In this document: positions 500 to 50,500 of the stretch, in pieces
Layout of the letters: each line of letters begins with the position of its first letter
Numbering within the stretch: the stretch's first letter is position 1
Origin: Chiloscyllium plagiosum
Lineage: Eukaryota
Length of the DNA stretch: 64,000 nt
Assembly: GCF_004010195.1 (NCBI RefSeq)
Contig: NC_057718.1
Location: 7,892,066-7,956,065 of the forward strand
Reading direction: 5' to 3'
Made by a program: the position numbers and the translations under genes
Notes under the pieces: generated by a model
What the model was told of the DNA's origin: nothing
Databases searched by the model: none
What the model saw: only the letters and a program-made list of their open reading frames with translations

Positions 500-576
500 T
501 TATTGCTGGAACAGCACAGCAGGTCAGGCAGCATCCAGGGAACAGGAGATTCGACGTTTCGGGCACAGGCCCTTCG
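500..576 (-). mobile_element. Truncated PLE-derived pLTR fragment with partial hammerhead motif
   Basis: Reverse complement gaagggcctgtgcccgaaacgtcgaatc matches the family at 24627-25217; the CTGATGA box is cut off. Confidence 0.7.
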
Positions 577-860
577 GTCGATGGACAATGCCAAATGGCT
601 TCCTTCAGTGTTGGAAGCTTTTCTGATACAATAACATGCTGGTATCATATTTATCAATACACACATGTAACTGGCTCCTCCTATATTTTTGCTCAAAGAG
701 CAGGAGCAGTGTGTAAGTTGCATAACACTGACCAGAGAGTATCAGCCTGTTTGAGAAGATAGTCATCTAACTGTTGTAGCCATATGTAATGGGCACTTTG
801 TGGTTAAGTGCAGTGACTAACACAAAACCTACTTCGATGAACTCTGGTAAGGTGGTGGTA

Positions 861-1171
861 TGTTACAGACCAGGCCAGACTCGCTCAAAACATTTCAAGA
901 GGGTATCCCAGAACCTAATTTTGATGGTTGTTTTAAGCAGGTGTAACACGGACATTCCTGGAGAATGGTCAAACCGCTTAGTTTTAAACAAGACATAATT
1001 TATTTACAAGAGTGCTGAATGAAACCCAGCAATAGAAAACAGAATACTGAATAACTTAACCTCTCCCAACAGGTCATCCCAACCTAATGATGCTGCTTCA
1101 AGTACTTATAGCAATGCCCATAAACACCCCTTGGCACAACAGGTAAAATCAAACTGAGGTTCTTACAGGAA

Positions 1172-1203
<32 letters not shown>

Positions 1204-1512
1204 ATACCAGCATGGACCTGCTTCTGTGGGTCCAGCAGCTTTTACGACATTATTGCAAAAACCAAACCAAACCAAACCAAACCAGAGTAAAGCTGAGCTA
1301 GGAGAACTGGCCACTTCCCTTTCACTGTACAGGTATACTCCTTTTAAAAATAAACTTGAAGGCCTTCTGCCTGATGCAGTGTCTATTAGCTATTGTCAAA
1401 TTGGCCCTACAATCCTTCAACCCCAGACTTTTCGGAGTCTGTGTCTTTTCAATCTCTCTGGAAAAAAAAACCAAGGACAATATAACCTTATTTAAGGAGC
1501 AGCTTTGTCAAA
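861..1512 (-). repeat. 3' LTR of the Gmr1-like element
   Basis: Starts tgttacagaccaggccagac, ends ggagcagctttgtcaaa; aligns to 5920-6786; internal (GA)n; purine tract aagggcagagg directly upstream on the minus strand (PPT-like). Confidence 0.88.
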
Positions 1513-2960: not shown

Positions 2961-3061
2961 ACATCATGCATAATTAGATTAGTATTTCCCAGTTTATTTT
3001 CACATATCTCCCCATGTGATAGCAACAAGTCTTTCAGGTTATGTCAAATTTCCTCTGGAGG

Positions 3062-5790: not shown

Positions 5791-5895
5791 TTATCCCAAA
5801 CACTGTTTAAACTAATCAAAATCAGCACCTGGAACAAAAGACACTAATACCTACCACTCGCTGTCTTCGAATCTAACAACCCGAATCACAATCAC

Positions 5896-5919: not shown

Positions 5920-6786
5920 TGTTGTGGACCAGGCCAGATCCCCTCAAAACATTTCAAGAAAGTATCCCACACCCCAACTTTCCTAGTTGTTTTAAGCAGG
6001 TGTACCGTGAATATTCCAGGAGGGAATTAGATGATCAAACCACTTAGTTTTAAACAAATAGAATTTATTTCCAAGATTACTGAATGAAATATAAACAAAA
6101 GAGAACAGAATGCTGAATAACAAACTCTCTGAAAACCCAACAGAACGTTCCAACGTAATGATGTTGTTCCAAATACTTGCAACAATCCCCATAAACACCC
6201 CTTGGCACAAAAGGTAAAATCAAACCCAGAAGCTAACAGGAGAGAAGTCAGAGAGAGAGAGAGAGAGAGAGTACCAGCCTGGGCCTGCTTCTGTGCGTCC
6301 AGCAGCTTTTCCACACTACTGGTAAAATCCAAGCCAAGCCAGAGAAAAGCTGAGCTGGGAGAACTGGCCACTCCCCTTTCATTGTACAAGTGTTCACTTT
6401 TTTTTAAACTTGAAGGCCTTCTGCCTGAGTTGAAAAATGTGATGCTGGAAAAACACAGCAGGCCAGGCAGCATCCGAGGAGCAGGAGAATCGATGTTTCG
6501 GGCATAAACCCTTCTTCATGCCCAAAAAGTCGGTACTCCTGCTCCTCGGATGCTGCCTGGCCTGCTGTGTTTTTCCAGCAAAACATTTTTCAACTCTGGT
6601 CTCCAGCATCTGCAGTCCTCACTTTCTCCTAGGCCTTCTGCCTGAGGCAGTATCCGTTAGCTATAGTCAACTTGGCCCTGAAACCCTTCAACCCCAGACT
6701 CTTCGGAGTCTGTGTCTTTTATGACCTCTCTGAAAAAAACCCAATAAAGGACAACATAACCTTGTTAAAGGAGCAGCTTCGTCACA
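5920..6786 (-). repeat. 5' LTR of the Gmr1-like element, interrupted at 6430-6630
   Basis: tgttgtggaccaggccagatc ... ggagcagcttcgtcaca (TG..CA ends); homologous to 861-1512. Confidence 0.88.
6430..6630. mobile_element. Palindromic PLE-derived insert with 16-bp target-site duplication
   Basis: aggccttctgcctgag at 6414-6429 and 6631-6646; empty site in the other LTR near 1360; arms are inverted repeats. Confidence 0.85.
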
Positions 6787-11021: not shown

Positions 11022-11852
11022 GTGAGTACCAGACTCCAGACTACTGCTGAACATTACTCTTGGAAAAACAAGTTTGTTTTAGTGAAGATAGACTCAAGGT
11101 CAAATATTTCTCAATCAGGCCAAAATTCTTTTGAAATTATTGACAGGAAAAGTTTCAACCTTTCAGTTTTGCTTTGGGAAACAAAATAGCTTGTGTGTCA
11201 TAATTGTTGCCTAAAGTCATAAGGAGTTTTGACAGACAAACTGTTTCCATTGGCTGGAGGTGTGGTAACCAGAAGACAGAGATTTAAAATGAGACGGGAC
11301 TTTTATTTGATATGCGTTGCAAATCGTTATAATCTGGTGCACATGGCTGAAAAGGGCAGATTCATGAAAACATTCAGAAGTGAATTGGACATATGTTTGG
11401 AAAAAAGAAATTTCACTTGAAGAAATTCAGAGAATTATACAAGGAACAGCAACAGATCTATATATTAGCGGAGCCAGATCCAACGGTGGATCACTTAGTG
11501 CCAGCTATAGGTTCTCTGCTCCTGCTCCATTGTTGTGTGTACAGGTATGTTCATAGACTTACTTGAAGCCGTAGTTACATTGGAGTGTAAGAGTAGGGAA
11601 GTCTTACGTTGAAGAGTGTGGTGCTAGAAAAGCACAGCCAGTCAGGCAGCATCCGAGAAGCAGGAGAATCGATGTTTCAAGCATAAACTCTTCAACAAGA
11701 AGCCTTACTGCAACTGTACAAGGTGCTGGGGAGATGATATCTGGAATATTGTGAGCAGTTTTGGCGCCCTTATTAAAGGAAAGATTTCATTTCTTTGGAG
11801 GCAGTTCGGAGAAGGTTAACTGGGATGATGCCCAGTGTGGCGGGATTGTCTT

Positions 11853-11980
11853 ATTCACCTGTGAAGGAGCGTCGCTCCGAAAGCTAGTGTGCTTCCAATT
11901 AAACCTGTTGGACTATAACCTGGTGTTGTGTGATTTTTAACTTTGTACACCCCAGTCCAACACCGGCATCTCCGAATCAT
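11853..11980 (+). mobile_element. PLE-derived short element (ggagc/gctcc hammerhead type)
   Basis: cacctg-tgaaggagcgtcgctccgaaagctagtg then aaacctgttggactataacctggtg; related copies at 12925-13110, 25219-25285, 26024-26128. Confidence 0.7.
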
Positions 11981-12924: not shown

Positions 12925-13110
12925 AGTCAGAAGTCACACAATGCCAGGTTATTGTTCAAGATGTTTATTTAAAACCACAAACTTTCAGAGCGCTGCTCCT
13001 TCATCAGGTGAAGCACTCCGAAAGCTTGTGATAAACCTGTTGGATTATAATCTGGTGTCGTGTAACTTCTGACCTTGTCCACTCCAGTCCAACATTGGCA
13101 CCTCCACATC
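12925..13110. mobile_element. Palindromic PLE-derived element with antisense hammerhead core
   Basis: Minus strand 12976-13010 cacctgatgaaggagcagcgctctgaaagtttgtg; inverted arms. Confidence 0.7.
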
Positions 13111-13679
13111 ACATCTGAAGAGAGTTACCTTTGGTGCCATGATCAATGTTTACCCCTAATCAAATCACCTTATCTGGTGATACTATGCGTTTCACTGCTC
13201 TTGTGTGGGAGCTTGCTGTGCAGAAAGTGGCTGCCATATTTTGTACGTTACGACTGTAACAGCACCTTGAAAGCAGTTCACAGAATTTATAAAATCCTGG
13301 GGTTGCAAAACCAGCTCCTTAAACGCAAGTTTATTTTTTTATGGAAACTCCAACCCCAAAACTTCATTCAATAAGCATTAAAACTCTTAGCAGAAAAAAC
13401 AAATAAACTGCAGATTAAATCCACATGCACAGAAGTACTTGTTATCTGGCAAATCTTCATGTTTGGAATGATATTGGGCACATTTGCTCACTTCCAATTC
13501 ATATGCCAAGTGGTGAACAGACACAAATAATCATTTTTATTTTACCAGTTAAGAGTCCAGGACTCACAAACCGCTCAAGTTTAAACATTCACAAAGTTGT
13601 GAAAGATCAGTTAGAAATAATTGAACACTTGATAACTCCTGTTAAGTGGGATAATTGAAATCTCACAATTCTGGGCAAT

Positions 13680-14912: not shown

Positions 14913-16767
14913 TAAGAGTGTGCTCAGAGATAAAGAGCTACAGAGAGCTCTACGCGAGGATCGTAGAGACAGGATTAATCATTGCAGGGATGAAAGATTT
15001 CAGACAGTGGAGCTACAGTAGATACACAATGATGGCACAAGATAGACAAACATGACAGAGCATGATGGGGGAGCTCCAGGCAGGAATAGCTAAGAGAACC
15101 AGCTGTATGAAATAAAATGCAATCCAGTGAGGATTTCAGACGTTTTGCTTCATTTGACTCTTCAATGGGAAAACAAAAAAGGAGATTTGATAGAGACATG
15201 CAAGATCTTGACAGATTAGATAAAGTGGTGAAGCAATGCTAGATAAAATCTGAAAGAACTATGAATGTCATAAATCAGAAACAAAACCAGAAGTTGCTGG
15301 AAAAGCTCAACAGATCTGTGCAGAGAAATCAGAGGTAATATTTTGGGTCCATTGACCTTGCCACAGTTCAAAGGAAAGGTTACCAGACCCAAAATGTTAA
15401 CTAATGAAACAATGCTGTCCCCTTTAGCTGCTGGTACAAAGACCGGGGAGCACGGGAGATACGTTTTTGGGGTCTGAGTAAAAGAAGAAATATGAGGAAG
15501 AACTTATTTTTGCAGCAAGCAATGACAACCTGTGGCACATTGTCTTTGGCGGAGAGAATCAATCATTTCGCAAAGAATTTGGAAATCCCTAGAAGATAAT
15601 AAACAAACAGAGCCATGGGAGGAGAAAGGGAGAATGGGAATGAATAGATTACTTTACAGAGAGCTTGCGTAGACTCAATGGGCTGAATGGCCATCTTCCA
15701 GATTGCAATGACTGTTTGGCTAATCTTCTCAAGGTCTTTGAGCCCTTGACATCAGAACCACATGAGTTGGTGTTCCTTACAAACTGGTTGAGGAGAAGGC
15801 AAGGTCAAGCACTACCTTCAAGCTCAGATGTCAAAGAAACATTATTTGTTATGCATTAATATTAAATATCGTGATACATGGCAATTATAGATCTAATTTG
15901 CTCTGACTTAGTTATATGAGATAAAGACTAATCTATCTTCTTTCTGTGTTCATGTCGGTTTGCTCACGTGAATCTACTGGAGGATATCGTACTCAGGTTT
16001 AGTTTGGTCTAGTGTTTTGCATCTCTGTCCTCCCTGTGCTATTTTTGCCCAGTGATGTTCAGTTCCATGACATCATCCCAAGATCACTCCAGGGTCTTGA
16101 AGCTCTTCCATGCCAGAACTGGCAGAGGGAGATTCCTGGTGGCAGCCTTTTAATTGGCTACGTCAATGGTAGGGTGAGAGATGTACAGGAAGCCTCAGCA
16201 GCTCAACTGGGAGAGATAGACTGTGCTCAGGCAGGTCAGAGACTAAAATGGAGCAAGAGTCAAATACAAATTAAGAAGGGCTAAGCAGGTCAGCCTATCC
16301 AGTTGGAGGTGGGGCATTGGGAATGTAGATGAGGATTTTCCTGACTGCAATCCCTTTATCTGCACCAAAGAGCCCCTGGCTCCTATATGGTTCAAGACAG
16401 AGCATTTCCATGAGCTTGGTGCCAGGGGCACGGTCTATTGCTGGACCAATGCCAGACTATCCAAATCACCCCAAAGGGGAACTTCTAAATATGGTCATTG
16501 GATACCCACCTTTGCACAATGGGTGGACAAGCTGGTTCTTAACCCCTTCTGGTAAACAACTCAGATGCCCGGGACTGTATCTGGAAGGTGTTCCTCTTTG
16601 GCCCCCAGATTTTGTTCAGCCCTGTCCCTTCCTTGCATCCTCAACCCCAGCCATTCTGGGAAAATTTTGCCCTATGACTCTAGGGGGAGCTGGACAGTGT
16701 CAAAAACCCAATGAGACAGAGGCCAATTATAAACCAGCAGGGCTAAAAACTAAACACACCAATGGAG

Positions 16768-17280
16768 ATGGGGAGAAAATGGCCTAGTGGCATTATTGAT
16801 CCAGATAATCTTCTAGATTAGAGTGGTGCTGGAAAAGCACAGCAGTTCAGGCAAGAACTGATAAAGGGCTTTTGCCCGAAACATCGATTTTCCTGCTCCT
16901 TGGATGCTGCCTGAACTGCTGTGCTTTTCCAGCACCACTCTAATCTAGAATCTGATTTCTAGCATCTGCAGTCCTTGTTTTTACCCAGATAGTCCTCTGG
17001 GGACCTGGGTTCAAATCCTGCCACAGCAGATGGTGGAATTTGAATTCAATAGCTATCTGGAATTAAGAATCTAATGATAACCATGAATCCATTGTTAATT
17101 ATTGGAAAATCCTATCTGGTTCTTTAGGGAAGGAAATTGCCATCCTTACCTGGTCTGGCCTATATGTGACTCCAGACCCACAGCAATGTGGCTGACTTAC
17201 AACTGTCCTCTGGGCAATTAGGGATGGGCATTAAATGGTGACCTAGCCAGTGATTCCCTCACCCAATGAATAGATCAAAA
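16768..17280 (+). mobile_element. SINE family 2 interrupted by a palindromic PLE-derived insert (about 16811-16985)
   Basis: Imperfect duplication ccagataatcttct / ccagatagtcctct flanks the insert, which has ctgataaagggcttttgcccgaaacatc. Confidence 0.8.
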
Positions 17281-17445
17281 GAAACAGAAATTACTGGAGA
17301 AACTGTGTAGGTCTGGCAGCATCTGTGGAGCGAGAAAGCAGAGTTAACATGTTGGGTCCAGTGACCCTTCTTCAGGGCTGCTGAGTTTCTCCAGCAATTT
17401 CTGTTTTAGTGTGTTTCTGATCTACAGCATCTGCTGGTCTTTTCT
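17280..17445. mobile_element. Older palindromic PLE-derived family (acagaaattgctggagaaactcagc type)
   Basis: Minus strand ctgaagaagggtcactggaccc (decayed hammerhead); relatives at 15245-15405, 18060-18170, 19765-19937, 31380-31490, 37150-37805, 39525-39610, 52880-53030. Confidence 0.65.
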
Positions 17446-18204
17446 TTTCAGGTTAACTATGACAAGTGCATCAAAAATATTGTGAAATGGCATGACAAAT
17501 TCCGAGTGAATCTGAGTGCATTGCCTTCAATATAAATAAAAAGTCAGAGAGATATAAATCGACTGTGATTCATGATTATCCATTTTATGATATTACACAA
17601 ACTTAACTTCTTCTCCAGTTACACACCACATCTGAATTTTTGTGGTCATGAATGACTCAATGTTTATCATTCTTATAATTCAATAATACTCCTCTCACTG
17701 CACCTTCTCAAACCGGAGTATCTCCAACCAGAAAGATTAAAGCTACAGATGTATGGGAACACCATCACCACCAGAATCTCTTCCAAAAATCTCACTACCC
17801 TGACCTGGAACTATATCATTGTTCCTTCGGTGTCTCTGGGACAACATCCTGGATCTCCCTCCCTCCCAGCTCCCTACCACCCCAGGAACAGTTTTCCTGG
17901 TGAATGGTGAATCCAGAAGGCGTTTCACCATTACATTCTCCAGGACAATTAGGGATGAACAGTAAACGCAGGCCTCATCTTACAAAACGATAAGTTAAGG
18001 CATCTGCTCACTTCCTTGTGAACTTTCGAATGGTTGCGAAGGCCTTGGAGAAGGGATGGAAGAGATGTTTTGAGTTCTGAAGAAGAGTCACTGGGTCTGC
18101 TTTCTAACAGATGCTGAATTTCTCCAGCAATTTCTGTTTTGATGTCAGATCTTCAGCACCTGACAAAAGGTTTTAGTTCTTGTTGAGAGCCTGAGAAAGG
18201 CTGG

Positions 18205-19425: not shown

Positions 19426-20354
19426 AAATGGTTGAAAATTCCAACAGAAACGTTTGGAGGGTTGTAGGTGAAAAGAACAGGAGATGGTAGGATTAATTGG
19501 GCAGCTCTTTCAAAGGGGTGATACAGACAGACACGAGGGGCCAAATGGACTCCTATTGCATGATCGGCCATGATCGTATGAATGGGGGTGCAGGTTCGAA
19601 GGGCCGACTGACCTCCTCCTGCTCCTACTTTCTATGTTTCAATCTTTCTTCTGCGGTGTGTGAATACATAGCATGTATAGAAGGGGCACACACACTGTGA
19701 CATTCAATGGATCATCCAAAAGTAAGAATTTTTGCAGTGCCCGAATTAGATTTGCTAAAAGGCAAAATACTGCAGAGGCAGGAATTCTGAGGTAAACACA
19801 AAAAGTGCTGGGAGAAATTTATCAGGTCTGGCATCACCTGTGGAGAGAGAGTTAATATTTCCGGTATGAAGACAAACTGTTCTAACGAAGAGTCAGATAA
19901 GACGTGTGCCATTAACTCTGTTTCTCTCTCCACAGCTTAGATTTTCTCCACATCATCCCCCATATCCCAAACACTGCACTCTGTTTTCCCCGACTGCCCA
20001 CTAGTCAGAGCACCTCTTGGGAGGGCAGAGGTCTTCAGCTGGGTGGGTGGAGCCTGAAATGGCTTGGGCATCCCAATGTGGGCCTGAGACAGATTGCCCA
20101 ATGAAAACTCATTGACGTAGAAATCAGGACCCATTAACATTTTGACTTCTCGTGCTGGGGAGAAAGACTAGTGACGGCACGATTCACTCTTTCTGCTCAT
20201 CACATTTGAGGATTAGAATGTCATCCAATACCTGAAATATGGATGTAACAATATGAGTTAATGATTTATTATTTAAACTTGCATTTTACAGGGTTTAACG
20301 CAGTGAAAAGCTTCAACTGTTATCACCGTCTGGACACTGTTTTAAACAGTTTGT

Positions 20355-21519: not shown

Positions 21520-23790
21520 CAAAGAACAAAGAACAAAGAAAATTTACAGCCCAGGAACAGGCCCTTCGGCCCTCCAAGTCTGAGCCGATCCAAATCTACT
21601 GTCTAAACCTGTCACCCAATTCCTAAGCATCTGTATCCCTCTGCTCCCCACCTACTCATGCATCTGTCCAGATGCATCTTAAATGAATCCACTATGCCTG
21701 CCTCTACCACCTCTGCTGGTAACATGTTCCAGACACCCACCATCCTCTGTGTGAAGTATTTGCCGCATGTATCCCCCTTAAACTTTCCACCTCTCACCTT
21801 GAAAACATAATCTCTCGTTATTGAATCCTTCACCCTGGGAAAAAGCTTGTCTTTATCCACCCTGCCTATACCCTTCATGATTTAGTAAACCTCATGATTT
21901 AGTAAACCTCAATCTCCTTTTTTCTAATGAAAACAAACCTAACCTACTCAACCTCTCTTCATAGCTAGCACCTTCCAAACCAGGCAACATCCTCATAAAC
22001 CTTCTCTGCACCCTCTCCAAAGCGTCCACATCCTTTTGGTAACGTGGTGCCCAGAACTGTACACAGTATTCTAAATGCGGCCGAACCAATGTCTTGTATA
22101 ATTTTAACATGTCTTGCCAGCTCTTATACTCAATAACCCATCCAATAAAGGCAAGCTTACTATATGCCTTTTTGACCACTCTATCCACCTGTGCAGCAAT
22201 CTTCAGGGTACAATAGACTTGCACTCCCAGATCTCTTGCCCATCAACTTTTCCTAAGGCTCTTCCATTCATTGTATAATTCGCTCTAGAATTAGTCTTGT
22301 CTAAATGCATCACCTCACATTTGTCTGGATTGAACTCCATCTGCCACTTTTCCGCCCAACTCTCCAGTCTATCTATATTCTCCTGTATTCTTTGACAGTC
22401 CCTTATGCTTTCTGCTACTCCACAAATCTTTGTGTCATCTGCAAACTTGCTGATCAGACCAACAGTGCCCTCTTCCAGATCATTTATGTATATTACAAAC
22501 AACAGTGTCCCCAACACTGACCCCTGTGGAACACCACTGGTCACCTTTCTCCATTTCGAGAAAGTCCCTTCAAATACTACTTTCTGTCTCCTGTTGCTCA
22601 ACCAGTTCTTTATCCACCTAGCTAGAACACCCTGCACACCATGCGACTTCACTTTCTCCATTAGTCTACAATGGGGAAGCTTATCAAGCACCTTTCTAAA
22701 GTCCATGTATATGACATCAGCAGTCCTTCATTCATCTATCAACTTGGTCACTTCTTCAAAGAACTCTATTAAGTTGGTAAGGCATGATCTCCCCCCGCAC
22801 AAAACCATGCTACCTATCACATTCTTTTCTAAATATAAATAGATCCTGTCCATCAGTACCTTCTCCAGGAACTTTCCCACCACCGATGTCAGGTTCACTG
22901 GTCTGTAGTTATCCAGAATATCCCTACTAGCCTTCTTGTACAGGGGGACAACAAGAGCACCAAAAAAGAAAATGCTGGAAAATCTTAGCAGGTCTGGCAC
23001 CATCTGTTTTGTCACTGAGGAAGGAAGTATGGCTGTGGAAGTGACATGAGCAACCTTCCAGTCCTCTGGCACCTCACGTGTATTTAAGGATGCGTCAAAG
23101 ATATCTGTCAGGACCCCAGCTATTTCCTCTCTCACCTCCCTCAGCAACCTGGGATAGATCCCACCTGGCCCTGTGGTTTTGTCCACCTTAATAATCTTTA
23201 GCCTACTCAACACATCTTCCCTTCCTCTGCCGATGTGATCCAGACTAATCAAACTTCTATCTCTAATTTCAAGATTCATCATGTTCCTCTCTTCAGTGAA
23301 CACTGATGTAAAGTAATCATTCAGAATCTCACCCATTCTCTCAGGTTCGGCACACAGCCAACCTTCATTATCCTTTAGTGGACCAATCCGTTCTCTAGTT
23401 ACCCGCTTACTTCTTATATAAGAACAAAATGCTTTGGGATTCTCCTTAATTCTGCTCGCTAAAGCTATGTCATGACCCATTTAGCCCGCTTGATTCCTTG
23501 TTTAAGACTTGTCCTATTCTTCTGATTTCCCCCAGGGCCCGTTCTGTTCTTGGCTGCCTAGACCTTATGTACACTTCCCTTTTCCTCTTGGCTAGTCCTA
23601 CGATTTCTCCTGTCATCCACGGTGCACGAATCTTGCCCTTCCTATCCTTTGCCTTCAACAAGACATGCCTATCCTGCACTATCTTTAACCTATCTTTGAA
23701 AGCCTCCCACATCTCAAATGTGGACTTCCCTTCAAATAGCTGTGACCAATCCACATTTCCGAACTCCTGCCTAATTTTGATATAATTGGC
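21520..23790 (-). mobile_element. CR1 LINE, about 2.3 kb 3' part with RT domain
   Basis: [41 protein letters not shown]; frameshifted; short PLE-like insert near 22961-23043. Confidence 0.95.
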
Positions 23791-24610: not shown

Positions 24611-24626
24611 TCTGGATCAGAGAGAC

Positions 24627-25217
24627 TCCCTGAGATTCTTGTAGAGAGAGGAGGAAAACTTCTTCAAGGCAGGCATCCTTGCAAGAGGATTCGCAGTAGG
24701 GTTAAAATCAACGAGGTAAAAACAATGACTGCAGATGCTGGAAACCAGATTCTGGATCAGTGGTGCTGGAAGAGCACAGCAATTCAGGCAGCATCCGAGG
24801 ACAGGCAAAATCGACGTTTCGGGCAAAAGCCCTTCATTAGGAATAAAGGCAGAGATTGCTGTGCTCTTCCAGGGAGTCTCTCTCCCACTGCAACTCCCAG
24901 GTCATTTCCTCAGCCCTGAAGCTCTTACTCTATGCTACTCTATCCCCACCCTCACCCTCCTCTAGCTTATCTCTCCACGCTTCAGGCTCTCTGCCTTTAT
25001 TCCTGATGAAGGGCTTTTGCCCGAAACGTCGATTTTGCCTGTCCTCGGATGCTGCCTGAATTGCTGTGCTCTTCCAGCACCACTGATCCAGAATCTGGTT
25101 TCCAGCATCTGCAGTCATTGTTTTTACCTCGTTGATTTTAACCCTCCTGCGAATCCTCTTGCAAGGATGCCTGCCTTGAAGAAGTTTTCCTCCTCTCTCT
25201 ACAAGAATCTCAGGGAG
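24627..25217. mobile_element. PLE insertion with near-perfect ~230-bp inverted pLTR arms
   Basis: 24627-24855 is the reverse complement of 24988-25217; pyrimidine-rich spacer; hammerhead motif in each arm. Confidence 0.88.
24997..25035 (+). ncRNA. Minimal type I hammerhead ribozyme motif
   Basis: CTGATGA (25003-25009), A, stem II GGGC-TTTT-GCCC, GAAA, C, GTC; predicted cleavage after 25030; palindromic ACGT stem III. Confidence 0.75.
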
Positions 25218-25759
25218 GAAAGCTAGTGTGCTTCCAATTAAACCTGTTGGACTATAACCTGGTGTTGTATGATTTTTAACTTTGTATAAAATTAAAGTCA
25301 GGATTAAAATGGGTGAAAGTTAATTTTCCCATGTGCAATGAAGTGAAAGCAGATGAAGTTTCTATCTCCAATTTCCCCTCAAATCTCACTCATTGTTTAA
25401 CCTATTAACCTCCCCTCAAGCTCAGTTTTTGTTTGAATGCAGCTGTGTAAACACTGAAGAGACTGTGCTCCACAAAAGACAAAGTGGCTTGATCGTCTTT
25501 GCTACCTGATACACCATCTTGCTTGTTCACTATCTCCGTCCCCATGGCTGGATGGCAGCAGCATGCACCATCCTCTAGATGCACAAGGGCACATTTCCTG
25601 AGCTTACAACTCTTAAACCTTCAATTTCTACCCACCCAAAGGACAGCCAATACATGGAAACACTACCACCAGCAATATCCCCTTCCAAGAGATTCAGCAT
25701 CCTGACTTGGAAATATATTGCCATTCCTTCAATATTGTTAGGTCAAAATCCTGGAACTG

Positions 25760-25985
25760 TAGGAGAAAGTGAGCACTGCTGATGCTGGAGATCAGACTCA
25801 AGATTGTGATGCTGGAAAAGCACAGCAGGTCAGGCAGCATCCGAGGAGCAGGAGAATCGACGTTTCGGGCATAAGCCCTTCATCAGCCTCATTCCTGATG
25901 AAGGGCTTGTGCTCGAAACGTCAATTCTCCTGCTCCTCAGATGCTGCCTGAGCTGCTGTCCTTTTCCAGCACCACACTCTCGACC
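25760..25985. mobile_element. Palindromic PLE-derived insert with two back-to-back hammerhead cores, inside a CR1/L2-like tail (25500-26185)
   Basis: Minus 25859-25886 ctgatgaagggcttatgcccgaaacgtc; plus 25895-25922 ctgatgaagggcttgtgctcgaaacgtc; flanks caaaatcctggaa / caagatcctggaa. Confidence 0.82.
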
Positions 25986-26820
25986 AAGATCCTGGAATTC
26001 CCTCCCCAATGGAACTGTGGGTTGCTCCAAAAGCTTGTCATTTCAAATAAATCTGTTGGACTATATCCTGGCATCGTGTGACCTCTGAATTTTTCCACCC
26101 CAATCTAACACTAGCACCTCCATGTCATGAACTGCAACAATTCAAGGATGTAGCTCATTGACTCCTTTTCCAGGGGCAGTTAGAGATGGAATTTCAAACA
26201 AAAACTTGTATAATGCAAACGTCTTTAAACAATGTAAGCTTTAACCTTACTCTCAAAAGGTGGGCTACTGGGCTGGAAATGTTAATTCCATTAATTTCGC
26301 TCTGCTTGTAAAGTTTTTCCAACAATTGTCAATAGTGTTTTGGATTTCCAGCATCCGCAGTTCCATGCTGGACAACGTTTAATGTGATTTTAATGAAAAG
26401 GATCAGAAATGACTTGAGCAAACAATTTTCTCCATTAAGTTCTTGTGACCTGCAATTACTGTCTGAAAGTAGAAACAGAGCCAAGAGTAGCTTCCAAAAG
26501 GGAAATTGAATAAATATTAAGGAAAGGAGTATTAGTCTACCAAGGACCAGAAACATCTCTCTTGATTACAGGGAGACAATTTTTTTATTCACTCCTGGGA
26601 TGTTGGCGTCTCTGACTGGGCCAACATTTATTGCCTGTGTATAATTGTCCTTGAGAGGGTGGTGGTAAGCTGTCTTCTCAAACCACCGAAGTTATATATA
26701 GTTTGAAGGTAACCAATCCACAATCATGGCTGGTGTAACCGCCTTAACGATCATAATCAGGTCAAGGTTTGACCTTGCACTGTCGGCTTTTGTTTTGTGG
26801 CCCTGCCAGCACAAACTCTG

Positions 26821-29514: not shown

Positions 29515-29905
29515 CACCTCAAGAGCTTACAGCCCAATGGTCTCAACTTAGAGTTCACCAACTTCCAATTACCCTACCCCCAACCTCATCACATGTCCAG
29601 CCCTCCCTCTCCTCTCCACCTCCCTCACTAGACCTAGCCTTCCCATCTTCCTTCCCACCTATCTGCTCTACCCTTCACACTGACCAATCATAACTCCCTA
29701 CCTGCATCCACTTATCACCATCCCACCTACCCATTCCTCAGTCCCATTTCCCTCCTTCTATTCATTTCTCAGCTCCCTACCCCCTCCCCAGTCCTGATGA
29801 AGGATCATGACGTGAAACATTGACTTTCCTGCTCCTACAACACTGTCTGACCTCCACATTTTATCTGCACTGACCTCCAGCATCTGCAGTCCATACTGTC
29901 TCCAA
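29515..29905 (+). mobile_element. PLE 3' end: ORF C-terminus, pyrimidine-rich UTR and pLTR with decayed hammerhead
   Basis: SLQPNGLNLEFTNF, then a C/T-rich tract, then cctgatgaaggatcatgacgtgaaacattgactttcctgctcc. Confidence 0.75.
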
Positions 29906-35128: not shown

Positions 35129-36037
35129 GTGTGATGACTCTATCACTTTAAAAAGATTATTTTGCCCTGGGTTTTTTGAAGAGAGGTTGTAAAGGCAGAG
35201 GTGCCGAATGTTGACTCTCCTGCTCCTCGGATGCTGCCTAACCTGCTATTCTTTTCCAGCGCCTCACTCTTGACTCTAATCTCCAGTATCTGCAGTCCTC
35301 ACTATCACCCAAAGGTGACTTTACCTTTTTCATGCTCTTTCCATCAATATTTACCTCTGGAACTCAGTATTTCCCTGGATATTCTGTGGATGTGCCTCAG
35401 GAAATTCTCACCCTCCTGTGTGCCTTGCACGTTTATCAGGTTCAGAAATCCTGAACTTGAACTCCAGCAGGTCAAGAAACATGGAGGAGCTCCAACATGG
35501 CAAATGGACTGCAGGCAATGAGCTATGTTTTAGTTCCATAAAAAAAGCACAGCAAGGAGCTCCAAATGAGCACTTCAAGATTTTTATGGCAACAGCAGCT
35601 TTGGTAATTTTACCCTTATGCATGGTCTGTAGGCACTTAAATGATCCATTGAATGCAAAAACACTAAGCTGTTGCATGAACCTCATCTGCAACCAATGTT
35701 TGCTCTTGTCTTCATCTGTTACTTGAGAGTAATGTGTGGAATCAGTGACCTTCATAACCTAATCTTCCACACATATGGTGTAAGAACTGCAACTGGGACT
35801 TAACCCAACATGAAGCAGCCCAGCTCAAAGACTTCAATATAAGTCTCTGTGTGTTGCCATTCATATAAATGTCAGTACATTTGTAATACTTCAGCCACAT
35901 ATTTCTTCTGTTAGAATGTGGGTTCTCACATTGAATAAACAGACAGAAGACAGGATTGATCTTGTATATGATAATGAAGCACGTCTGGATGTACAAATAT
36001 TTAGAAAGATGATGTAAAGTTAACTTCAGTAGTAGTT

Positions 36038-36941: not shown

Positions 36942-37251
36942 GTTATTGAGGGAAAATGTACAATCAAGAGGCAGTTTATGAAAGGGAATAGACTCTTGAA
37001 CAAATTCCTTTGAGTCCTGTGCTTTAACCAACAAGCATGAAATTCAGCCATGGCAAATTCGCATCTTCATTCGGGTTTTCAACATCTCTTTCTTGTATCT
37101 CAGTTTGTTAGCAACAGTGGTGGCAGTTTATGATAGCTACACAGAAGCTGAAAAAACTGTGGATGCTGTAAATCAGAAACAAAAACAGAAATTGCTGGAA
37201 AAGCTCAGCAAGCCTGGCAGTATCTGAGGAGAGAAATCCGAGTTCAGAGTT

Positions 37252-37705
37252 GAGACGGTCAGCTCATGAGGAGAGACTGAGTAGACTGGGATTACATTCA
37301 TTGGATTTTGAAGAATGAAGGGGGATCTTATAGAAACATGTAAAATTATGAAGGGAATAGATAAAATAGATATAGAAGGACGTTTCCACTGGCAGGTGAA
37401 GCTAGGACAAGAAGACATAGCCTCAAAATTAGGGGGAGCAGATTTAGGACTGAATTGAGAAGGAACCTCTTCACCCAGAGTTGTGAATCTATGGTATTCC
37501 CTGCCCAGTGAAGTAGTTGACACCACTTTAGTAAATGTTTTTAAAGCTAAGGTAGATCTTTTTTTGAACAGGAAAGGAATTAAGGGTTATGTTGAGAGGG
37601 TGGGTAAGTGGAGCTGAGTCCATGAAAAGATCAGCCATGATCTTACTGAATGGCGGAGCAGGCTCGAGGGGCCAGACGGCCTACTCCTGCTCCTAGTTCT
37701 TATGT
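37252..37705 (+). mobile_element. CR1 3' fragment nested in an older PLE-derived element
   Basis: RMKGDLIET.KIMKGIDK; tail cctactcctgctcctagttcttatgtt. Confidence 0.85.
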
Positions 37706-38107
37706 TACGTTTCAGGTCATGTGACTCTTCCTCAGAATCCATCCAAAACATTAACTCTGCTTTCTCTCCACAGATGCTGCCCGACTTATTGAGCTTTTCC
37801 AGCAATAATGGCTGAATTGTTGGACTAAATATGCCTAATGCAGGAGGAGGGAAATTGAGAAGATATTGCCCTTTGAGGTGATGCTCAATAAAGTGGTCTG
37901 AGATTCCACACCATTTGGAAGATTGAGACGATCTCATACAATGTGTAAAGGTTCTAATGGTCAGGAATGTTCCCACTTACTGGCAAGTACAAAAGGGCAT
38001 CTCATTGTAACAAGAGGTCAACCACTTATTGTTGAGATGACAAGAAATTCCTTCACTCAAAGTGCTGTGGACTTTTAGAGTTCTTTCCATTGGAAAGCTG
38101 TGGATCA

Positions 38108-39042: not shown

Positions 39043-40975
39043 AACAGTCTAGGGGCAGAAGGAGGCTCTTTCTATGTTCACAGCTGATTATCTACATCAA
39101 AGCTATTGGCCCAGGCTATCTCCATATAAGGCCATAACACATATAAAACTCCCCACTTGCCTGGATGGGTGCAGCTCCAACCACTCTCAAGAGGTGTGAC
39201 ACCATCCAGAACAAAGCCGCCCATTCATTAGAGAGCGATGACTGACAATGGTTTAAGCTGAGGGTCATCATGCCTCAGGTGAGGGGAGAGGTTGTGAAGG
39301 AGAGTCCTTTATGGTAACGTCAGCCGGTGTGGGAATTGAACCCATGCTGTTCGCATCACTCTGCATCACAAACCAGCCAACTGAGCTGATCGACCTCTAT
39401 AAAGGAGTGAGAAAAGAAAGTCCTCTTCATCTTGGTTTTAAACAGAAGAGCCACCAGCTTCTGAGGTGACTTTCTCTGACCCTGGACTCTCCCATAAAGA
39501 GAAGCAAACTTCCCCAATTCTTAAACAAAAGTTGCTGGAAAAACTCAGCAGGTCTGGCAGCATGTGTGAACTGAAAGCAAGAGTCCACTGACCCTTTTTC
39601 AGAACTAATACTCAGGACCTGATTAAAGGACCAATTGGATGTAAGTAGGAAGTATGCAACTCATCAAAGAAAGACAGACATGCATTTACATAGCACCTTT
39701 CATAACCCTCAGATCTTACAAAGCACTTTACAGCCAATGAAATATTTGTTGAATGCTATTGCTGTAACATCAGTCATAACGGTGGCTAGTTTGCACCAAG
39801 AAAGACCCATACGCAGCCCCATGACAATAAGCAGGTAGCCTTCTAGTGGGGTATACCCTGACCCAACACTGAGGAATCCTCTGAAGGCTCTTTGTTAAAA
39901 GTTTTGACCTGAGAATGAATAAGAGGAGAAAGCTGAACAGGATAATGCCCACAGTAGGTATTGATTAATAAGTAACACAGAAGAAAGGCTGTGAAGGAAC
40001 ATTGTGTGAGTGAAACATTATCCCAAAGAGAAAGACCAACAATCTTGGTGTAAAAATTACTCTGGTTCAGTAGTCCTAATTGGTGAGGGATGCCTGCCTT
40101 TATGAAGTGCATCTGAAACACATACTCTTCAGTGCTTTGCAAGAGTTAGAAAGCAAATACTGACCTTGCCAGTGACACCCACAACAGACACTCAAGTAAA
40201 GTTAAGAGAGATTGAACAGTTTAGGTGACTTTGCTCTGAAATAATGGGGGCTTTAATAAGTTCACATGGGGACCTTTCTGTTTGTCGGAGAGAGTCTGAA
40301 GCTCAGGATCATAAGTAAAAGACTGTCATTAATAAGTCCAACTTTGTGTTTTAGAGATACACTTTTACCCAGAATATGATATGAATATGGGGGAAAATAA
40401 AGATGTCTTTAAGAGGAAGGACTAAAAAGTGATATAAAATAAAAGGCTCTTGTGGAATATAGATTGTTCAGCTTGATGGTTATCTTTGAGATGTTTTTGA
40501 TGCTAAGCTCTATAACATTTTATGAAATTGGCATAAGTAGTAACCTTGTGTTGTTTGGAAATCCATTAACAAATTTGATTTGTCACAGAGGTTTGAAGAC
40601 TACAGCAGATTCTGAATAAGGTTAAATCGAATATTATATTCACTTATTTCATTTGCCACAGGGTGCATCTGACCTTTTCCTGACACAACTGAGTGCCTGG
40701 TTCTGAAAACTGCAACCAGTGGGGGAGCCAAAATCTCACATTTCAATCCAGCGCTTAATGTAATCTAACCCTGTCTGCCTCGCCTCCTTCAAGGTCTCTC
40801 GCTACACCTCACCACCACCTCCCCCACAACCTTCCAGGCAAGTTCAAAGGGAAATTTTGGATACAGATGTTGAGAATCAAAACTAGTTTATTATCACAAG
40901 CACATGTGGATGGGAGAGTGGTTAACTGTTCTTGACACAACACATTGGCCTGCTGGCATTTCAGTCAAGGGCAAT

Positions 40976-42245: not shown

Positions 42246-42249
42246 ATTG

Positions 42250-44884: not shown

Positions 44885-45300
44885 TGTTTCCATGATTCTA
44901 AATAGACCTGTCAGCCCCACTATGTCTATGCTGACCAACACCACCAAACTGCACTGATCCCCTTCACTGCATTTTAAGTGCTCATCCAGGTGTTTCTTAA
45001 ATGCTGTGAGAGTACCTTTCTCCACTGCCCTCTCAGTAGCACCTTCTACATCTCCACCAAACTCTGGATAAAGAAAATTCTTTTTCACATCTCCTCTGAA
45101 CCACCTTCTTCTCATATTAACCATGTGCCGTCTGCTCTTAGACACATCAGCCATGGGGAAAATATTCTCATGATCTACCCTGTCCATGCCTCTAATAATT
45201 TTCTATATCTCAATCAGATCCATCCTCATCCTCCTCTGCTTCAGGGAAAACCACCCCAGCCTATTCTGTCTTCATAACTGAGACTTTTCACAGCTTGGGA
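44885..45300 (-). mobile_element. CR1 3' fragment
   Basis: MDRVDHENIFPMADVSKSRRH..AFKKHLDEHLK. Confidence 0.8.
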
Positions 45301-45304
45301 AAAG

Positions 45305-46105
45305 CTTTGGAGCTCAGGTTGTGAAGCAGGTTGTCAGTTTTCTCACTGAGCTGGTAGATTTGTTCTCAGAAGTTTCATCACCATGCTAGGTAGCATCATC
45401 AGTGAGCTTCTGTTGAAGCGCTGGTGCGTACTGTCCCACTCACTATTTATCTGCCTTAGTCTGTTGTGGTCTGTTTCTGAGAGGTTGGTAAATGGGGTCG
45501 AAATTGATGTGTTTGTTGATGGAATTCTGGTTTGAATGCCAGGCCTCGAGGAATTCCCACGCATGCCTTTGATTAGCCTGTTCCAGGATGGATGTTTTGT
45601 CCCAATCGAACTGGTGTCCCTCTTCGTCTGTGTGTATGGATACTAGTGATAGTTGGTCATGTCTTTTGGTGGCTAATTGGTGCTCATGTATCCTGGTGAC
45701 TAGTTTCCTGCCTGTCTGTCCAATGTAATATTTGTTGCAGTCCTTGTTTTGTATTTTGTTTGTGACGTTCATTCTGCTGGCTGTTGGTACAAAATCCTTT
45801 AAATTCATCAGGAGCTGTTTCAGTGTGGTGGTAGGTTTGTGGGCTACCATGATGCCTAGAGGACTGAGTAGTGTGGTTGTAATCTCTGAGATGTCTTTAA
45901 TGTATGGCAGGGTGGCTAGAGTCTTTGAGCGTGTTGTGTCTTCAGGTCCGTTGTGCAGGAATCAGCAGACTGTGCTTACTGGATACCTGCTCCTGAATAC
46001 TTTGTTTAGGTGTTTTTCCTTGTCTTGTTGTAGTTCCTGGGTGCTGCAATGTGTTCTGGCTGATTTAAATAATGTCCTGATGCAGGTCCGTTTGTGGGTG
46101 TTGAC
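45305..46105 (-). mobile_element. Penelope-like element 3' part: GIY-YIG endonuclease and pLTR
   Basis: VAHKPTTTLKQLL..DCNKYYIGQTGRKLVTRIHEH..HQFDW..FLEAWHS..SINK; hammerhead motif downstream. Confidence 0.9.
45365..45407 (-). ncRNA. Hammerhead ribozyme motif in the PLE pLTR, slightly decayed
   Basis: Minus strand ctca-CTGATGA-tgctacctagcatggtgat-GAAA-cttc-tgag; stem I ctca/tgag. Confidence 0.65.
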
Positions 46106-46295
46106 AGTTCACCCCAGGTAACATCCTGGTGAATCTCCTCTGCACTCTCTCCAGTGCAATCACATAGTTATACACCAAGGTCTCCTTGTTCATCAGTACT
46201 CCAAAGCACTTACCATTCATTGAGTATATCTTTCCCTTATTAAACTTTCCAAAATGTATCACCTCGCATTTATCAGAACTGAATTCATCAAGCAG

Positions 46296-47542
46296 TTGCA
46301 GGAAGGGAAGTTCGTGTTTGACAAACTTCTTGGAGTTCTTTGATGATGTAACAAGCGCGGTGGATGGAGGGGAACAGGTGGATGCTGTATACTTGGATTC
46401 CCAGAAGGTGTTCAGTAAGGTGCCGAATAAAAGACTCATCCATAAGATAAGAATGCATGAAGTTGTAGGGAATGTACTAGCATGGATAGAGGATTGGTTA
46501 ACCAATAGAAAGCAAAGAGTTGGGATAAATGGGTGTTTCTCTGGTTGGAGATCAGTGGTGAGTGGGGTGCCGCAGGGGTCGGTGTTGGGTCTGCAACTGT
46601 CCATGATATATATATATAAATGATTTGGAAGAGGAGACCGAATGTAATGTATCCAGGTTTACCGATGACACTAAACTGAATGGAAAGGCACACTGTGCAG
46701 AGGATGTGAAGGATCTGCAGAGAGATTTAGATAGGTTGTGAATGGGCAAGGGTCTGGCAGATGGAGTACAATGTTGGTTAATGTGAGGAAATAAAAGCAG
46801 TAGGTCAGACTATTATTTAAAGGGTGAAAGACTGCAGCATGCTGCTGTGCAGAGGGACTTAGGAGTCCTCGTAATGAATCACTAAAAGTTGATTTGCAGT
46901 TGCAACAGGTAATCAGGAAGGCAAATGGAATATTAGCTTTCATTGCTAGAGGATTGAATTTAAGAGCAAGGAGGTTCAGCTGCGATTGTACAAGGTGTTG
47001 ATGAGGTTGGATATTGTGAACAGTTCTGGACTCCTTACTTGAGGAAGGATATACAGGCTTTGGAGGCAGTGCAGAGGAGGTTCACCAGGTTGATTCCAGA
47101 GATGAGGTGGTTACCCTGTGAGGAGAGGTTGAGCCACCAGGGACTGTACTCACTAGAATTTAGAAGATTGAGAGGGGATCTTTTCGAAACATATAAAATT
47201 ATGAAAGGGATAGATAAGATCAAGGCAGGCAAATTGTTTCCACTGGTGGGTGAGATTAGGACTATCGGACATGGCCTCAAGATTAGGGGGAGCAGATTTA
47301 AGACAGAGATGAGGAGGAAATGCTTTTGCCAGAGAGTAGGAATCTATGGAATTCTCTGCCCTAGGAAGCAGTAGAGACAACTTCGTTAAGTATATTCACG
47401 GCACTGTTGGATGGGTTTTTGCATGGTAGGGGAATTAAGGGTCATGGGGATAATGCAGGGAGGAGGAGCTGAGACGATGGATAGATCAGCCATGATCTTA
47501 ATGACAGGTCTACTCCTGCGTCTATTACTATGAAACTATGAA
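46296..47542 (+). mobile_element. CR1 RT-to-3' UTR fragment (short antisense CR1 piece at 46112-46290)
   Basis: [37 protein letters not shown]. Confidence 0.9.
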
Positions 47543-47544
47543 TT

Positions 47545-50500
47545 CCACCTGCCATTGCTCTTCCCAATTTGCCAGTGGATCACTATCAGACTGCAGCCTG
47601 AGACCATCCATCTCACTATCACCAATTTTCCTACAAACTTCCTACTAATCAAACTTCTCTACATTCACATCCAAATTGTTAATGTAAATAACAAACAGCA
47701 AGGGTCCCAGCACCGATCCCTGTGGTATACCACTGGTCACAGACTTCCAAGCACATAAACATCCCTCCACCATCACCCTTTGCCTCCTGTTTGGAAGCCA
47801 ATTTTGGATCCAGTTTGCCAACTTGCCTTGGATCCCCTGGGCTCTTACCTTGCGGACCAGCCTTCCATGTGGGATCAAGTCAAAGCCCTTACTGAAGCCC
47901 AAGGAAACCACATTAACTGCACCAACTACATCAGTAAATTTGGTCACCTGTTTAGAAAACTCAATTAAATTAGTCAGACAAGATCTTCCTTTATAAATCC
48001 GTGCTGACTATTCCTGATCAATACCTGCAGTCCCAAGTATTGATTAAGTTTGTCCTTCAGAATTGTTTCCAATAATTTCCCTATCACTAACTGGTCTGTA
48101 ATTACCTGGCCTAAACCAGCTGAGGAGAAAGTGAGGGCTGCAGATGCTGGAGATCAGAGCTGAAAATGTGTTGCTGGAAAAGCACAGCAGGTCAGGCAGC
48201 ATCCAAGGAACAGGAGAATCGACATTTCGGGCATAAGCCCTTCCTCAGGAATGAAGAAAGTGTATCCAGCAGGCTAAAATAAAAGGTAGGGAGGAGGGAC
48301 TTGGGGGAGGGGCTTTGGAAATTAGATTAGATTAGATTACTTACAGTGTGGAAACAGGCCCTTCGGCCCAACAAGTCCACACCGACCCGCCGAAGCGCAA
48401 CCCACCCATACCCCTACATTTACCCCTTTAACCTAACACTACGGGCAATTTAGCATGGCCAATTCACCTGACTCGCACNNNNNNNNNNNNNNNNNNNNNN
48501 NNNNNNNNNNNNNNNNNNNNNNNNNNNNNNNNNNNNNNNNNNNNNNNNNNNNNNNNNNNNNNNNNNNNNNNNNNNNNNNNNNNNNNNNNNNNNNNNNNNN
48601 NNNNNNNNNNNNNNNNNNNNNNNNNNNNNNNNNNNNNNNNNNNNNNNNNNNNNNNNNNNNNNNNNNNNNNNNNNNNNNNNNNNNNNNNNNNNNNNNNNNN
48701 NNNNNNNNNNNNNNNNNNNNNNNNNNNNNNNNNNNNNNNNNNNNNNNNNNNNNNNNNNNNNNNNNNNNNNNNNNNNNNNNNNNNNNNNNNNNNNNNNNNN
48801 NNNNNNNNNNNNNNNNNNNNNNNNNNNNNNNNNNNNNNNNNNNNNNNNNNNNNNNNNNNNNNNNNNNNNNNNNNNNNNNNNNNNNNNNNNNNNNNNNNNN
48901 NNNNNNNNNNNNNNNNNNNNNNNNNNNNNNNNNNNNNNNNNNNNNNNNNNNNNNNNNNNNNNNNNNNNNNNNNNNNNNNNNNNNNNNNNNNNNNNNNNNN
49001 NNNNNNNNNNNNNNNNNNNNNNNNNNNNNNNNNNNNNNNNNNNNNNNNNNNNNNNNNNNNNNNNNNNNNNNNNNNNNNNNNNNNNNNNNNNNNNNNNNNN
49101 NNNNNNNNNNNNNNNNNNNNNNNNNNNNNNNNNNNNNNNNNNNNNNNNNNNNNNNNNNNNNNNNNNNNNNNNNNNNNNNNNNNNNNNNNNNNNNNNNNNN
49201 NNNNNNNNNNNNNNNNNNNNNNNNNNNNNNNNNNNNNNNNNNNNNNNNNNNNNNNNNNNNNNNNNNNCTCACCTTGACCTCCCTCCACCTATCGCATTTC
49301 CAAAGCCCCTCCCCCAAGTCCCTCCTCCCTACCTTTTATCTTAGCCTGCTGGATACACTTTCTTCATTCCTGAAGAAGGGCTTATGCCCAAAATGTCGAT
49401 TCTCCTGTTCCTTGGATGCTGCCTGACCTGCTGCGCTTTTCCAGCAACACATTTTCAGCCAAACCAGCTGAGACAAAGGAAACACATTAATAATCCTCTC
49501 GTCATTTGGCATTTCCCCTGTAGCCAGCGAAGTATTAAATATCTCCATCAGGGCCCCAGTAATCTCCTCCCTGCCTCCCAAAGCAGCCTGGGATACATCT
49601 CATTGGACCCTGGCAATGTATCTACCTTTATGACCACTAAAACATCTAATCTCTCCTCCCTATCAATCTTACCATGTTCTAGAACCTCCCCATCCCAAAT
49701 GAAATCCCCAGCTACAATGCCTTTCTCCTCTATAAATAAAGTTACGAAATATTCATTTAAGATCTCACCCACATCTACCTACTACACGCACAAGTTGCTC
49801 TATTGGTCTCTAATAGTCCCCACCTTTCCCTGGTATTCCTCTTATTTTTAATATACTTATGAAAAGCTTTGAGGTTTTCCTTAATCTTATCTGCCACAGA
49901 TATTCTGTGTCCCCTTTTTGCCCTTCTAATTTCCTTTTTAACCAACCCCTTACACTCTTCATAGTTTTGAAGGTCCTCCCTGTTTTTAATTCATTGAGTC
50001 AGATACATGTTTCATTATTTTTCTTTACCAAATTCTTGATATCCCTTGACATCCAGGATTCCCTGGACCTGCTTCCCTATCCCTTCCCTCTCAGAGGAAC
50101 AAGACAGTCCTGCATTCTCACTGCTACTTTTAACAGACTCCCACTTCCCAAATGTCGTCTTACCTGCTGCTCCCAGTCAGTGTTTGCCAGATCCTGTCTG
50201 ACAATATTAAAATTGACCCAACTTAAGCACTTAACTTCTGCACCATCCTTATCCTTTTCCATAATGACTTTGGAACTTACAGAGTTATGATCACTATTCC
50301 CAAAATACTTGCCCATTGGCACTTCAGATACTTGGCCAGCTTTATTCCCTAGGATTAGGTCTAACATTGTCCCATCTCCAGTCAGGCTATCTATGGACTG
50401 GTAGAAAAAGCTTTCCTGAATGCATTTTAAAAATTCCACATTGACTAATCTTTCAAACTGAGATGATTCCAGTTGATGTTAGAAAAGTTGAAATCCCCAA

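Follow-up and report, generated by a model that had tools for sequence, protein, structure and literature searches.

Short palindromic hammerhead-bearing inserts in a shark genome window are most likely truncated ends of Penelope-like elements

A stretch of 64,000 nucleotides from the shark Chiloscyllium plagiosum (RefSeq assembly GCF_004010195.1, contig NC_057718.1, forward-strand positions 7,892,066 to 7,956,065; the whole 64-kb stretch is called the window) is crowded with short, often palindromic inserts that carry sequences like those of a minimal hammerhead ribozyme. A first-pass annotation named 13 such places, sorted them into at least four types, A to D among them, and left two explanations standing: heavily truncated insertions of Penelope-like elements (PLEs), or independently amplifying, retrozyme-like RNAs mobilised by PLE enzymes. 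Which of these accounts for the inserts, and how do the palindromes arise? Our analysis argues for the former, in that the inserts are very probably dead-on-arrival, 5'-truncated copies of several endonuclease-bearing PLE families, each consisting of the end module, or pseudo-long terminal repeat (pLTR), with a minimal type I hammerhead. The stubs are thus of a described kind, namely truncated and often inverted PLE end modules with minimal hammerheads: inverted, 5'-truncated copies with a one-sided tail are known for PLEs in the parts of the literature used here (PMC8557442, PMC3846280), and the expansion of PLEs in the introns of sharks has been published (10.1101/443036). Ordinary PLE debris as they are, these elements are of value in that they record, in nature, a cycle of transposition that is poorly understood, and three regularities go beyond the cited PLE papers: clustered inner ends, one tail per inverted pair, and a poly(A) site in family B.

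Inventory of the hammerhead-bearing insertions

Sequence of the expected kind was found at all 13 named places, although these amount to only 11 insertions, since 25859 and 25895 belong to one and 48230 and 49370 to another, the arms of the latter having a common 12-bp target-site duplication (TSD) with an N gap between them. Profiles made from the window copies of families A, B, C and D extended the inventory to about 23 loci with 34 arms, some 12 loci being additional to those named earlier, and the reversed window, used as a control, gave no matches. The minimal-hammerhead pattern CTGANGA-N8-22-GAAANNTH matched nine times, against 0.81 +/- 0.73 expected, and nine was reached in none of 100 shuffles. 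Eight of the nine matches fall in the repeat families, each of which has at least one copy with both core boxes; the ninth, at 31022 and without family homology, is probably a chance match. Rfam returned no hits at the gathering score and 14 at E values up to 10, none a hammerhead, the best of these weak matches being microRNA-hairpin models on the palindromes.

The earlier description of the inserts stands in outline and needs correction in several respects. The core boxes were said to be retained in the better copies, and both are indeed intact at 12976, 25003, 25859, 25895, 45365 and 48230, but these are only six of the 13 named sites. At 550, 6500, 11859 and 16860 the first box has been lost or altered, as has the second at 17350, 18077 and 49370, and neither of the named type C sites (17350, 18077) has a whole core. 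Both boxes together with a stem I closable by at least 2 bp occur at four of the 13 (12976, 25003, 45365, 48230). Monomer folds favour other hairpins, with z between 0.4 and -2.9 for nine copies, and most stub ribozymes, being cut short or mutated, would not be expected to cleave. Many inserts are inverted pairs, as had been claimed, whereas those at 550, 11859, 18077 and 45365 are single arms; most are without coding sequence, but type D codes, with protein matches to GIY-YIG and to reverse transcriptase (RT) plus GIY-YIG. Nor is stem II wholly different between the types: A and C are related, their profiles cross-hitting downstream of the ribozyme, and both of their stems II open with AGGG and close with CCC. 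This kinship downstream of the ribozyme makes the types less independent than was first stated.

Evidence for a Penelope-like origin

Coding evidence comes from family D, represented by a single copy, in which 46096-45470 gave a tblastn match to an RT plus GIY-YIG protein (E 6e-63). The frame (46105-45443) aligns with the C-terminal 213 amino acids of the RT plus GIY-YIG protein at 52% identity, the RT core itself having been truncated away, and has 70% identity to a carpet-shark protein, the nearest named proteins being from carpet sharks. The GIY-YIG domain (PF01541) is detected at E 0.007, below the curated cut-off, and the hammerhead lies 41 bases past the stop codon. The linker contains no cysteine-pair motif; the Penelope/Poseidon linker is likewise described without a cysteine-pair motif (Zn-finger-like) within the relevant part of PMC8557442, and this is the one character by which family D would be placed with Penelope/Poseidon.

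Longer sequence is also attached to family A, where both arms of the young insertion at 24626-25217 (I12; subfamily A2) extend 90 bases beyond the tail in an open frame. The A2 frame is open over 25002-25217 and 24877-24960, and DNA contigs connect 25217 back to 24877-24880 (depth 610), the continuation being the sequence at 24877-24926. As a separate observation, a Cep57-like gene model of Chiloscyllium punctatum starts with about 40 residues from a family A end piece, representing either exonisation or a gene-model artefact.

The architecture of the stubs points in the same direction. Arm positions are given here relative to ribozyme C3 (+1). Families A, B and C each have two fixed 3' ends about 35 bases apart, this difference being the tail: the outer ends lie at about +88 to +92 and at +126 in A, at about +84 to +90 and at +121/+122 in B, and at two sites by alignment in C. 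The PLE tail has been traced to two internal RT start sites in the portion of PMC11167929 considered. The 12-16-bp TSDs reported earlier were recovered at seven of the 23 loci (p<=0.012 against 600 random flank pairs), with a 10-bp TSD at one further locus (I3, p=0.038), and the TSD of I2 is backed by an empty paralogous site in an LTR-like sequence near 1360. Ten inverted pairs were identified, and their central junctions are all different. In family A, sister arms are nearest neighbours in eight of ten cases and within 0.010 of the best in the other two, so that each pair derives from one source and the pair itself is not what is being copied. The coding D copy, the continuation of the A body, the two fixed 3' ends, the TSDs and the varied junctions together support truncated PLE insertion.

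On this reading the RT-endonuclease would nick both target strands 10-16 bp apart, and reverse transcription would begin within element RNA that is uncleaved, at either of two start sites, and mostly halt some 70-135 nt further on, over the ribozyme. Where both nicks were primed, the two cDNAs would meet head to head, and a palindrome would be formed anew at each insertion.

Several observations weigh against this interpretation. A protein search with the A2 frame (72 amino acids) returned no PLE protein, the one match among 21 candidates being the exonised piece in the Cep57-like gene model. There is no coding sequence linked to families B or C in the window, and both are provisionally filed as PLE ends by their architecture, C also by its homology to A. 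No significant TSD was found at 15 of the 23 loci, and I12 departs from the one-tail pattern described below and is without a TSD. The inner ends cluster and are not spread, which is compatible with a discrete short template RNA. Finally, an open frame upstream of I16 (29461-29580, 40 amino acids), which we had presumed to resemble an endonuclease C-terminus, was unsupported by searches, these giving three unrelated repetitive proteins and then no candidate.

One tail per palindrome

Seven pairs have their two outer ends at a start site or close to one, and in every one of these a single arm bears the tail (p=0.008 if the odds were even). Taking all ten inverted pairs, nine have it on one arm only, including I6 and I10, which combine a tailed arm with a short inner piece; the exception is I12, where both arms run beyond the tail. 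The untailed arm reaches farther upstream in I2, I5, I8 and I13, the reverse holds in I7 and I18, and the centre of I21 is hidden by the gap. The longer upstream reach of the untailed arm excludes a simple fold-back of one cDNA in the first four of these pairs. The simplest fit would be that each nicked strand primes at a different start site of one shared RNA, with the cDNA in front being displaced by the one behind it. For the Anolis element PAc, both target strands are reported to be cut and extended, with a predicted dimer (PMC11167929, in part); a literature search combining Penelope with 'twin priming' and 'inverted' gave nothing on topic by title.

Self-priming on an antisense template has been proposed (in the section of PMC3846280 that concerns us), and the inverted arm could in principle stem from fold-back or self-priming of one cDNA, or from such a template; we consider this rather unlikely. 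It would accommodate the rare variants that sister arms have in common (three in I2, two in I21), as well as the short inverted inner pieces ending short of any start site (the right arm of I6, an 18-bp piece in I12). However, six pairs retain both outer ends and a centre that can be read, and in four of them (again I2, I5, I8 and I13) the untailed arm holds upstream sequence that is absent from the tailed arm while the tail is present only on the other, so that neither arm is a full copy of its sister. One tail per palindrome, with either arm being the longer at the centre, is a sharp prediction for the in vitro Anolis system.

Inner ends cluster over the ribozyme

Inner ends range overall from about -14 to +62 and beyond, yet a 38-nt zone from -15 to +22 holds 20 of the 28 firm arms and 24 of all 34, the remaining firm arms ending downstream of it (four) or running upstream of it (four); six arms (I9, the right arm of I10, I15, I16, I19 and I22) were set aside as uncertain. 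The stop rate inside the zone is about 16 times that outside, and constant-rate simulations reached the count in the best window in 0 to 9 of 20000 runs, figures to be read in the light of a zone picked after seeing the data and of sister arms that are not independent. Tailed and untailed arms stop in the same zone in spite of starts 35 bases apart, which makes the effect positional. The truncation is therefore non-random and ends over the ribozyme, and for this reason the pieces look like a discrete family.

Two explanations of the clustering were rejected. Detection bias does not account for it in family A, since leave-one-out trimming trials, simulated for family A, recovered trimmed arms in all trials down to +60 (untailed) and +100 (tailed); untailed arms trimmed to +70 and +80 were recovered in 0 of 12 trials. 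Cleavage-defined 5' ends are rejected because none of the 34 arms has its inner end within 2 nt of the cut site, a result that fits an uncleaved template as found in vitro (PMC11167929, in part). Loose ends also pile up before 24999 (1095 contigs, 370 reads), but A1 and A2 diverge at this very point, and the pile was not counted as evidence of clustering, although its low agreement (0.33-0.47) fits mixed flanks. Contig depth was not taken as copy number. In family A, the monomer folds show a hairpin that spans +2 to +29. The stop zone raises the question of whether the template RNA begins shortly before the ribozyme or the RT is halted by the ribozyme fold; either would serve.

A poly(A) site in family B

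In run X21, 672 reads leave the family B piece in runs of A, 275 of them at 25254 and 397 at 25257. These points lie 12-15 bases behind an ATTAAA hexamer (25237-25242) and ahead of a GU-rich stretch, and the template there is not A-rich. Depth is strand-biased (898-1182 versus 143-382 in two bins over 25218-25247), and two sequence variants end at these points, which indicates at least two loci or alleles. It is therefore probable that family B has a poly(A) site in use, the alternative being an A-tract in some genomic copy. In the same run, 724 reads (agreement 0.88) also continue upstream across a B ribozyme that is intact and uncut, and the hexamer is kept in four of the five B arms that cover the site. 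No comparable site was seen for family A. A literature search of a partial library found no PLE pLTR paired with a poly(A) signal, and PMC2377424 has no match to 'polyadenyl'; the retrozyme-family supplements of Li 2026 may hold related shark sequences.

The site lies at about +59, before both 3' insertion ends of B. If it is the element's own signal, the RT start sites left in a normal mRNA would be confined to the vicinity of its 5' end, and stubs would be the default product. B stubs may also act as portable poly(A) signals, and, this stub family being very abundant, the use of such a site could influence both intron content and the 3' ends of the host.

These data also bear on the idea that B or C are stand-alone, non-autonomous elements without a long parent, templated by a pLTR transcript of about 100-140 nt from solo stubs in the manner of short interspersed nuclear elements (SINEs). 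The concentration of firm inner ends in the 38-nt zone is what such a transcript would yield, and all six B arms and all C arms are short and without linked coding sequence. Family A, however, clusters likewise yet has long members, with four of 14 arms running farther upstream; in DNA contigs, the depth of family A immediately upstream of the ribozyme reaches about 30% of its peak over the core; and B transcripts polyadenylated near +59 end before both 3' insertion ends and cannot template full stubs. We therefore regard stand-alone amplification as unlikely.

Returning to truncated PLE insertion, we tentatively suggest a model, possible though well short of established, in which a dimeric PLE enzyme twin-primes one RNA at two different start sites and so leaves one tail per palindrome. 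The start site would mostly lie near the 5' end of the RNA, since the element's own poly(A) site (B, near +59) would end the mRNA before the 3' start sites; stubs would be the default, long copies would need read-through, and B stubs would scatter poly(A) signals.

Retrozyme-like amplification and DNA-level alternatives

The second proposal of the first-pass annotation, in which palindromic or circular RNAs of a retrozyme-like kind amplify independently and are mobilised by PLE enzymes, was not borne out, there being no recurrent centre in the ten pairs, no tandem ribozyme array and no pile of reads at the cut site. Minimal hammerheads, TSDs, a mostly non-coding content and near-constant size are all features expected of retrozymes, and non-LTR retrozymes are reported to derive from pLTRs and to occur in the one chondrichthyan sampled (10.64898/2026.07.22.740005, in part). 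Against this, none of the 16 tandem rows in the window overlaps a hammerhead, the ten central junctions reveal no monomer with fixed boundaries, and both boxes with a closable stem I survive at only four of the 13 named sites, as given above. Opposite-strand joints, among those listed in the X1 contigs, are varied and shallow (best depth 112, in three contigs, versus millions over the core; a further 77 joints lie beyond those listed, and counting was saturated). The 3740 aligned X21 reads show no pile of read beginnings or ends, although a poly(A) single-cell library cannot show circles. We consider retrozyme-like amplification very improbable. That the palindromes are DNA-level miniature inverted-repeat transposable elements (MITEs) or assembly artefacts is scarcely credible: inverted arms with TSDs are MITE-like, two inverted repeats in the window flank N gaps and the inner part of I21 is hidden by one, but the arms are unequal (tail on one side), single arms also have TSDs (I1, I3), arms differ by up to 23%, and there is an empty paralogous site.

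Loci and other features of the window

Table 1. Insertions of families A to D in the window. Positions are those of the window; signed numbers are inner ends or offsets relative to C3; a point in the strand column marks insertions with arms on both strands.
Locus	Position	Strand	Family and structure	TSD
I1	492..575	-	A, single untailed arm; inner end +6, lacks first core box	477-491/576-590, 15 bp, 1 mismatch, p=0.003
I2	6430..6630	.	A, head-to-head pair; left +2 no tail, right ~+15 tailed; no intact core	6414-6429/6631-6646, perfect 16 bp; empty paralogous site near 1360-1375 with single target copy
I3	11608..11698	-	A, single arm; degenerate core, no tail; absent from earlier annotation	10 bp, p=0.038
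I4	11855..11978	+	B, single tailed arm; first core box minus one base; inside fragment of a long interspersed nuclear element (LINE)	none
I5	12926..13111	.	B, pair; left -4, both core boxes, no tail; right ~+15, tailed	14 bp, 1 mismatch, p=0.003
I6	15241..15404	.	C, old pair; left arm tailed, right arm short (+6 to +34)	12 bp, p=0.007
I7	16811..16985	.	A, pair in dispersed repeat; left +51 no tail; right +1 tailed, G8 mutated	16801-16814/16985-16998, 2 mismatches, p=0.012
I8	17282..17451	.	C, pair; left +1 no tail, second box mutated; right +61 tailed	none
I9	18072..18162	+	C, single arm; second core box deleted	
I10	19759..19895	.	C, old tailed arm plus weak short inverted piece (11/14 identities, uncertain)	
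I11	22958..23009	-	C, stub from +50; no ribozyme	
I12	24626..25217	.	A (subfamily A2), young complex insertion; arms 228/230 identical, both past tail; centre: 18-bp internal piece plus 24870-24926 (where the element itself continues downstream); core at 25003 intact, cut predicted after 25030	none
I12B	25218..25286	+	B, stub from GAAA box; ATTAAA 25237-25242, poly(A) addition near 25255, then GU-rich run	
I13	25761..25984	.	A, pair; left +1 tailed, right -8 untailed; core boxes in both, neither closes stem I	13 bp, 1 mismatch, p=0.005
I14	26021..26126	+	B, tailed arm; begins in stem II (+14)	
I15	26257..26370	+	C-like, old tailed arm, weak (E 2e-7)	
I16	29545..29903	+	A-related, older arm; long pyrimidine-rich upstream part; core boxes 29794, stem II broken; start approximate	
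I17	35204..35309	+	A, tailed arm; begins near +17	
I18	37151..37806	.	C, pair; tailed left arm split by later insertion (~37250-37700); core boxes 37735(-); right +21 untailed	
I19	39520..39606	-	C, arm; second box deleted, no tail	
I20	45300..46105	-	D, 5'-truncated coding PLE: RT-region end, linker, GIY-YIG endonuclease (46105-45443), 3' untranslated region, hammerhead 45402-45369; 3' end approximate	
I21	48122..49459	.	A, pair (named sites 48230 and 49370); arms 158/162 identical; left tailed, interrupted by SINE-like repeat at 48320; N gap 48479-49267; right untailed	48113-48124/49461-49472, perfect 12 bp, p=0.003
I22	52848..52944	-	C, old arm, weak (E 3e-6)	
I23	62294..62321	-	B, 28-bp stub; no ribozyme	

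Three of the B insertions, at 25218, 26021 and 11855, are close to an A insertion, at distances of 0, about 35 and about 155 bases, and several A-B joints occur at low depth in the contigs, an association noticed post hoc. PLEs are reported to insert beside earlier copies (PMC6765202, in part); here this would be across families.

Outside the PLE stubs, two LTR-like copies at 900-1600 and 6000-6800 flank degenerate RT and RNase H-like frames (1866-3439) and represent an old LTR retrotransposon, I2 having landed in one copy. A 171-bp inverted repeat (99% complementary) at 20554-21081 encloses a SINE-like piece together with an N gap and is a possible assembly artefact; its left arm ends in a SINE-like start as at 48341. 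Another, of 65 bp and 94% complementary, has its arms 586 bases apart in LINE-like sequence (50249-50964) and perhaps reflects a LINE 5' inversion. Minisatellites of 24, 30 and 46 bp occur at 7005-7591, 24113-24609 and 26821-27556, none with a hammerhead, and the 30-bp array adjoins the left end of I12.

Comparison with known systems

A close parallel is with canonical endonuclease-bearing (EN+) PLEs, Penelope/Poseidon and Neptune, for which the parts of Craig 2021 (PMC8557442) and Arkhipova 2013 (PMC3846280) drawn on here describe 5' truncation, a 30-40-bp tail and an adjacent inverted copy. Truncated copies, a head-to-head inverted arm and a tail at one end are common to both, and family D likewise has its GIY-YIG endonuclease upstream of the pLTR. 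TSDs are of similar size, 8-10 bp in rotifers and 10-16 bp here. In contrast to those elements, most units in the window are two stubs with no open reading frame between them, the inner ends cluster over the ribozyme, and about 23 loci are packed into 64 kb.

With published minimal hammerheads the inserts have in common the type I fold without stem III, a palindromic 15.2-16.2 in intact copies, an extra base before stem II and the G10.1-C11.1 pair, as well as the presence of several families per genome, mostly solo, with some motifs close together on opposite strands. The parts of that literature compared describe minimal hammerheads on opposite strands at spacings of 100-700 bp, as well as solo motifs derived from truncated PLEs; no shark is named in those parts, and stem I of family A has only two contiguous pairs.

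The Poseidon element PAc of Anolis carolinensis (Frangieh 2024, PMC11167929) is similar in its two 3' ends past the hammerhead, its uncleaved template and its lack of RNA ends at the cut site. It differs in that neither clustered inner ends nor a poly(A) site before the start sites is reported in the parts compared, whose experiments also do not address the use of different start sites by the two strands of a single insertion.

Metazoan non-LTR retrozymes (Cervera and De la Pena 2020, PMC7229834; Li 2026, 10.64898/2026.07.22.740005), as far as these sources were compared, are also non-coding, with a type I hammerhead, a pLTR origin and TSDs longer than 4 bp. They are built, however, of head-to-tail units with a ribozyme each, by definition with a complete hammerhead in at least two successive units, and are expressed as circles, whereas the shark inserts are solo or head-to-head stubs whose ribozymes are mostly broken.

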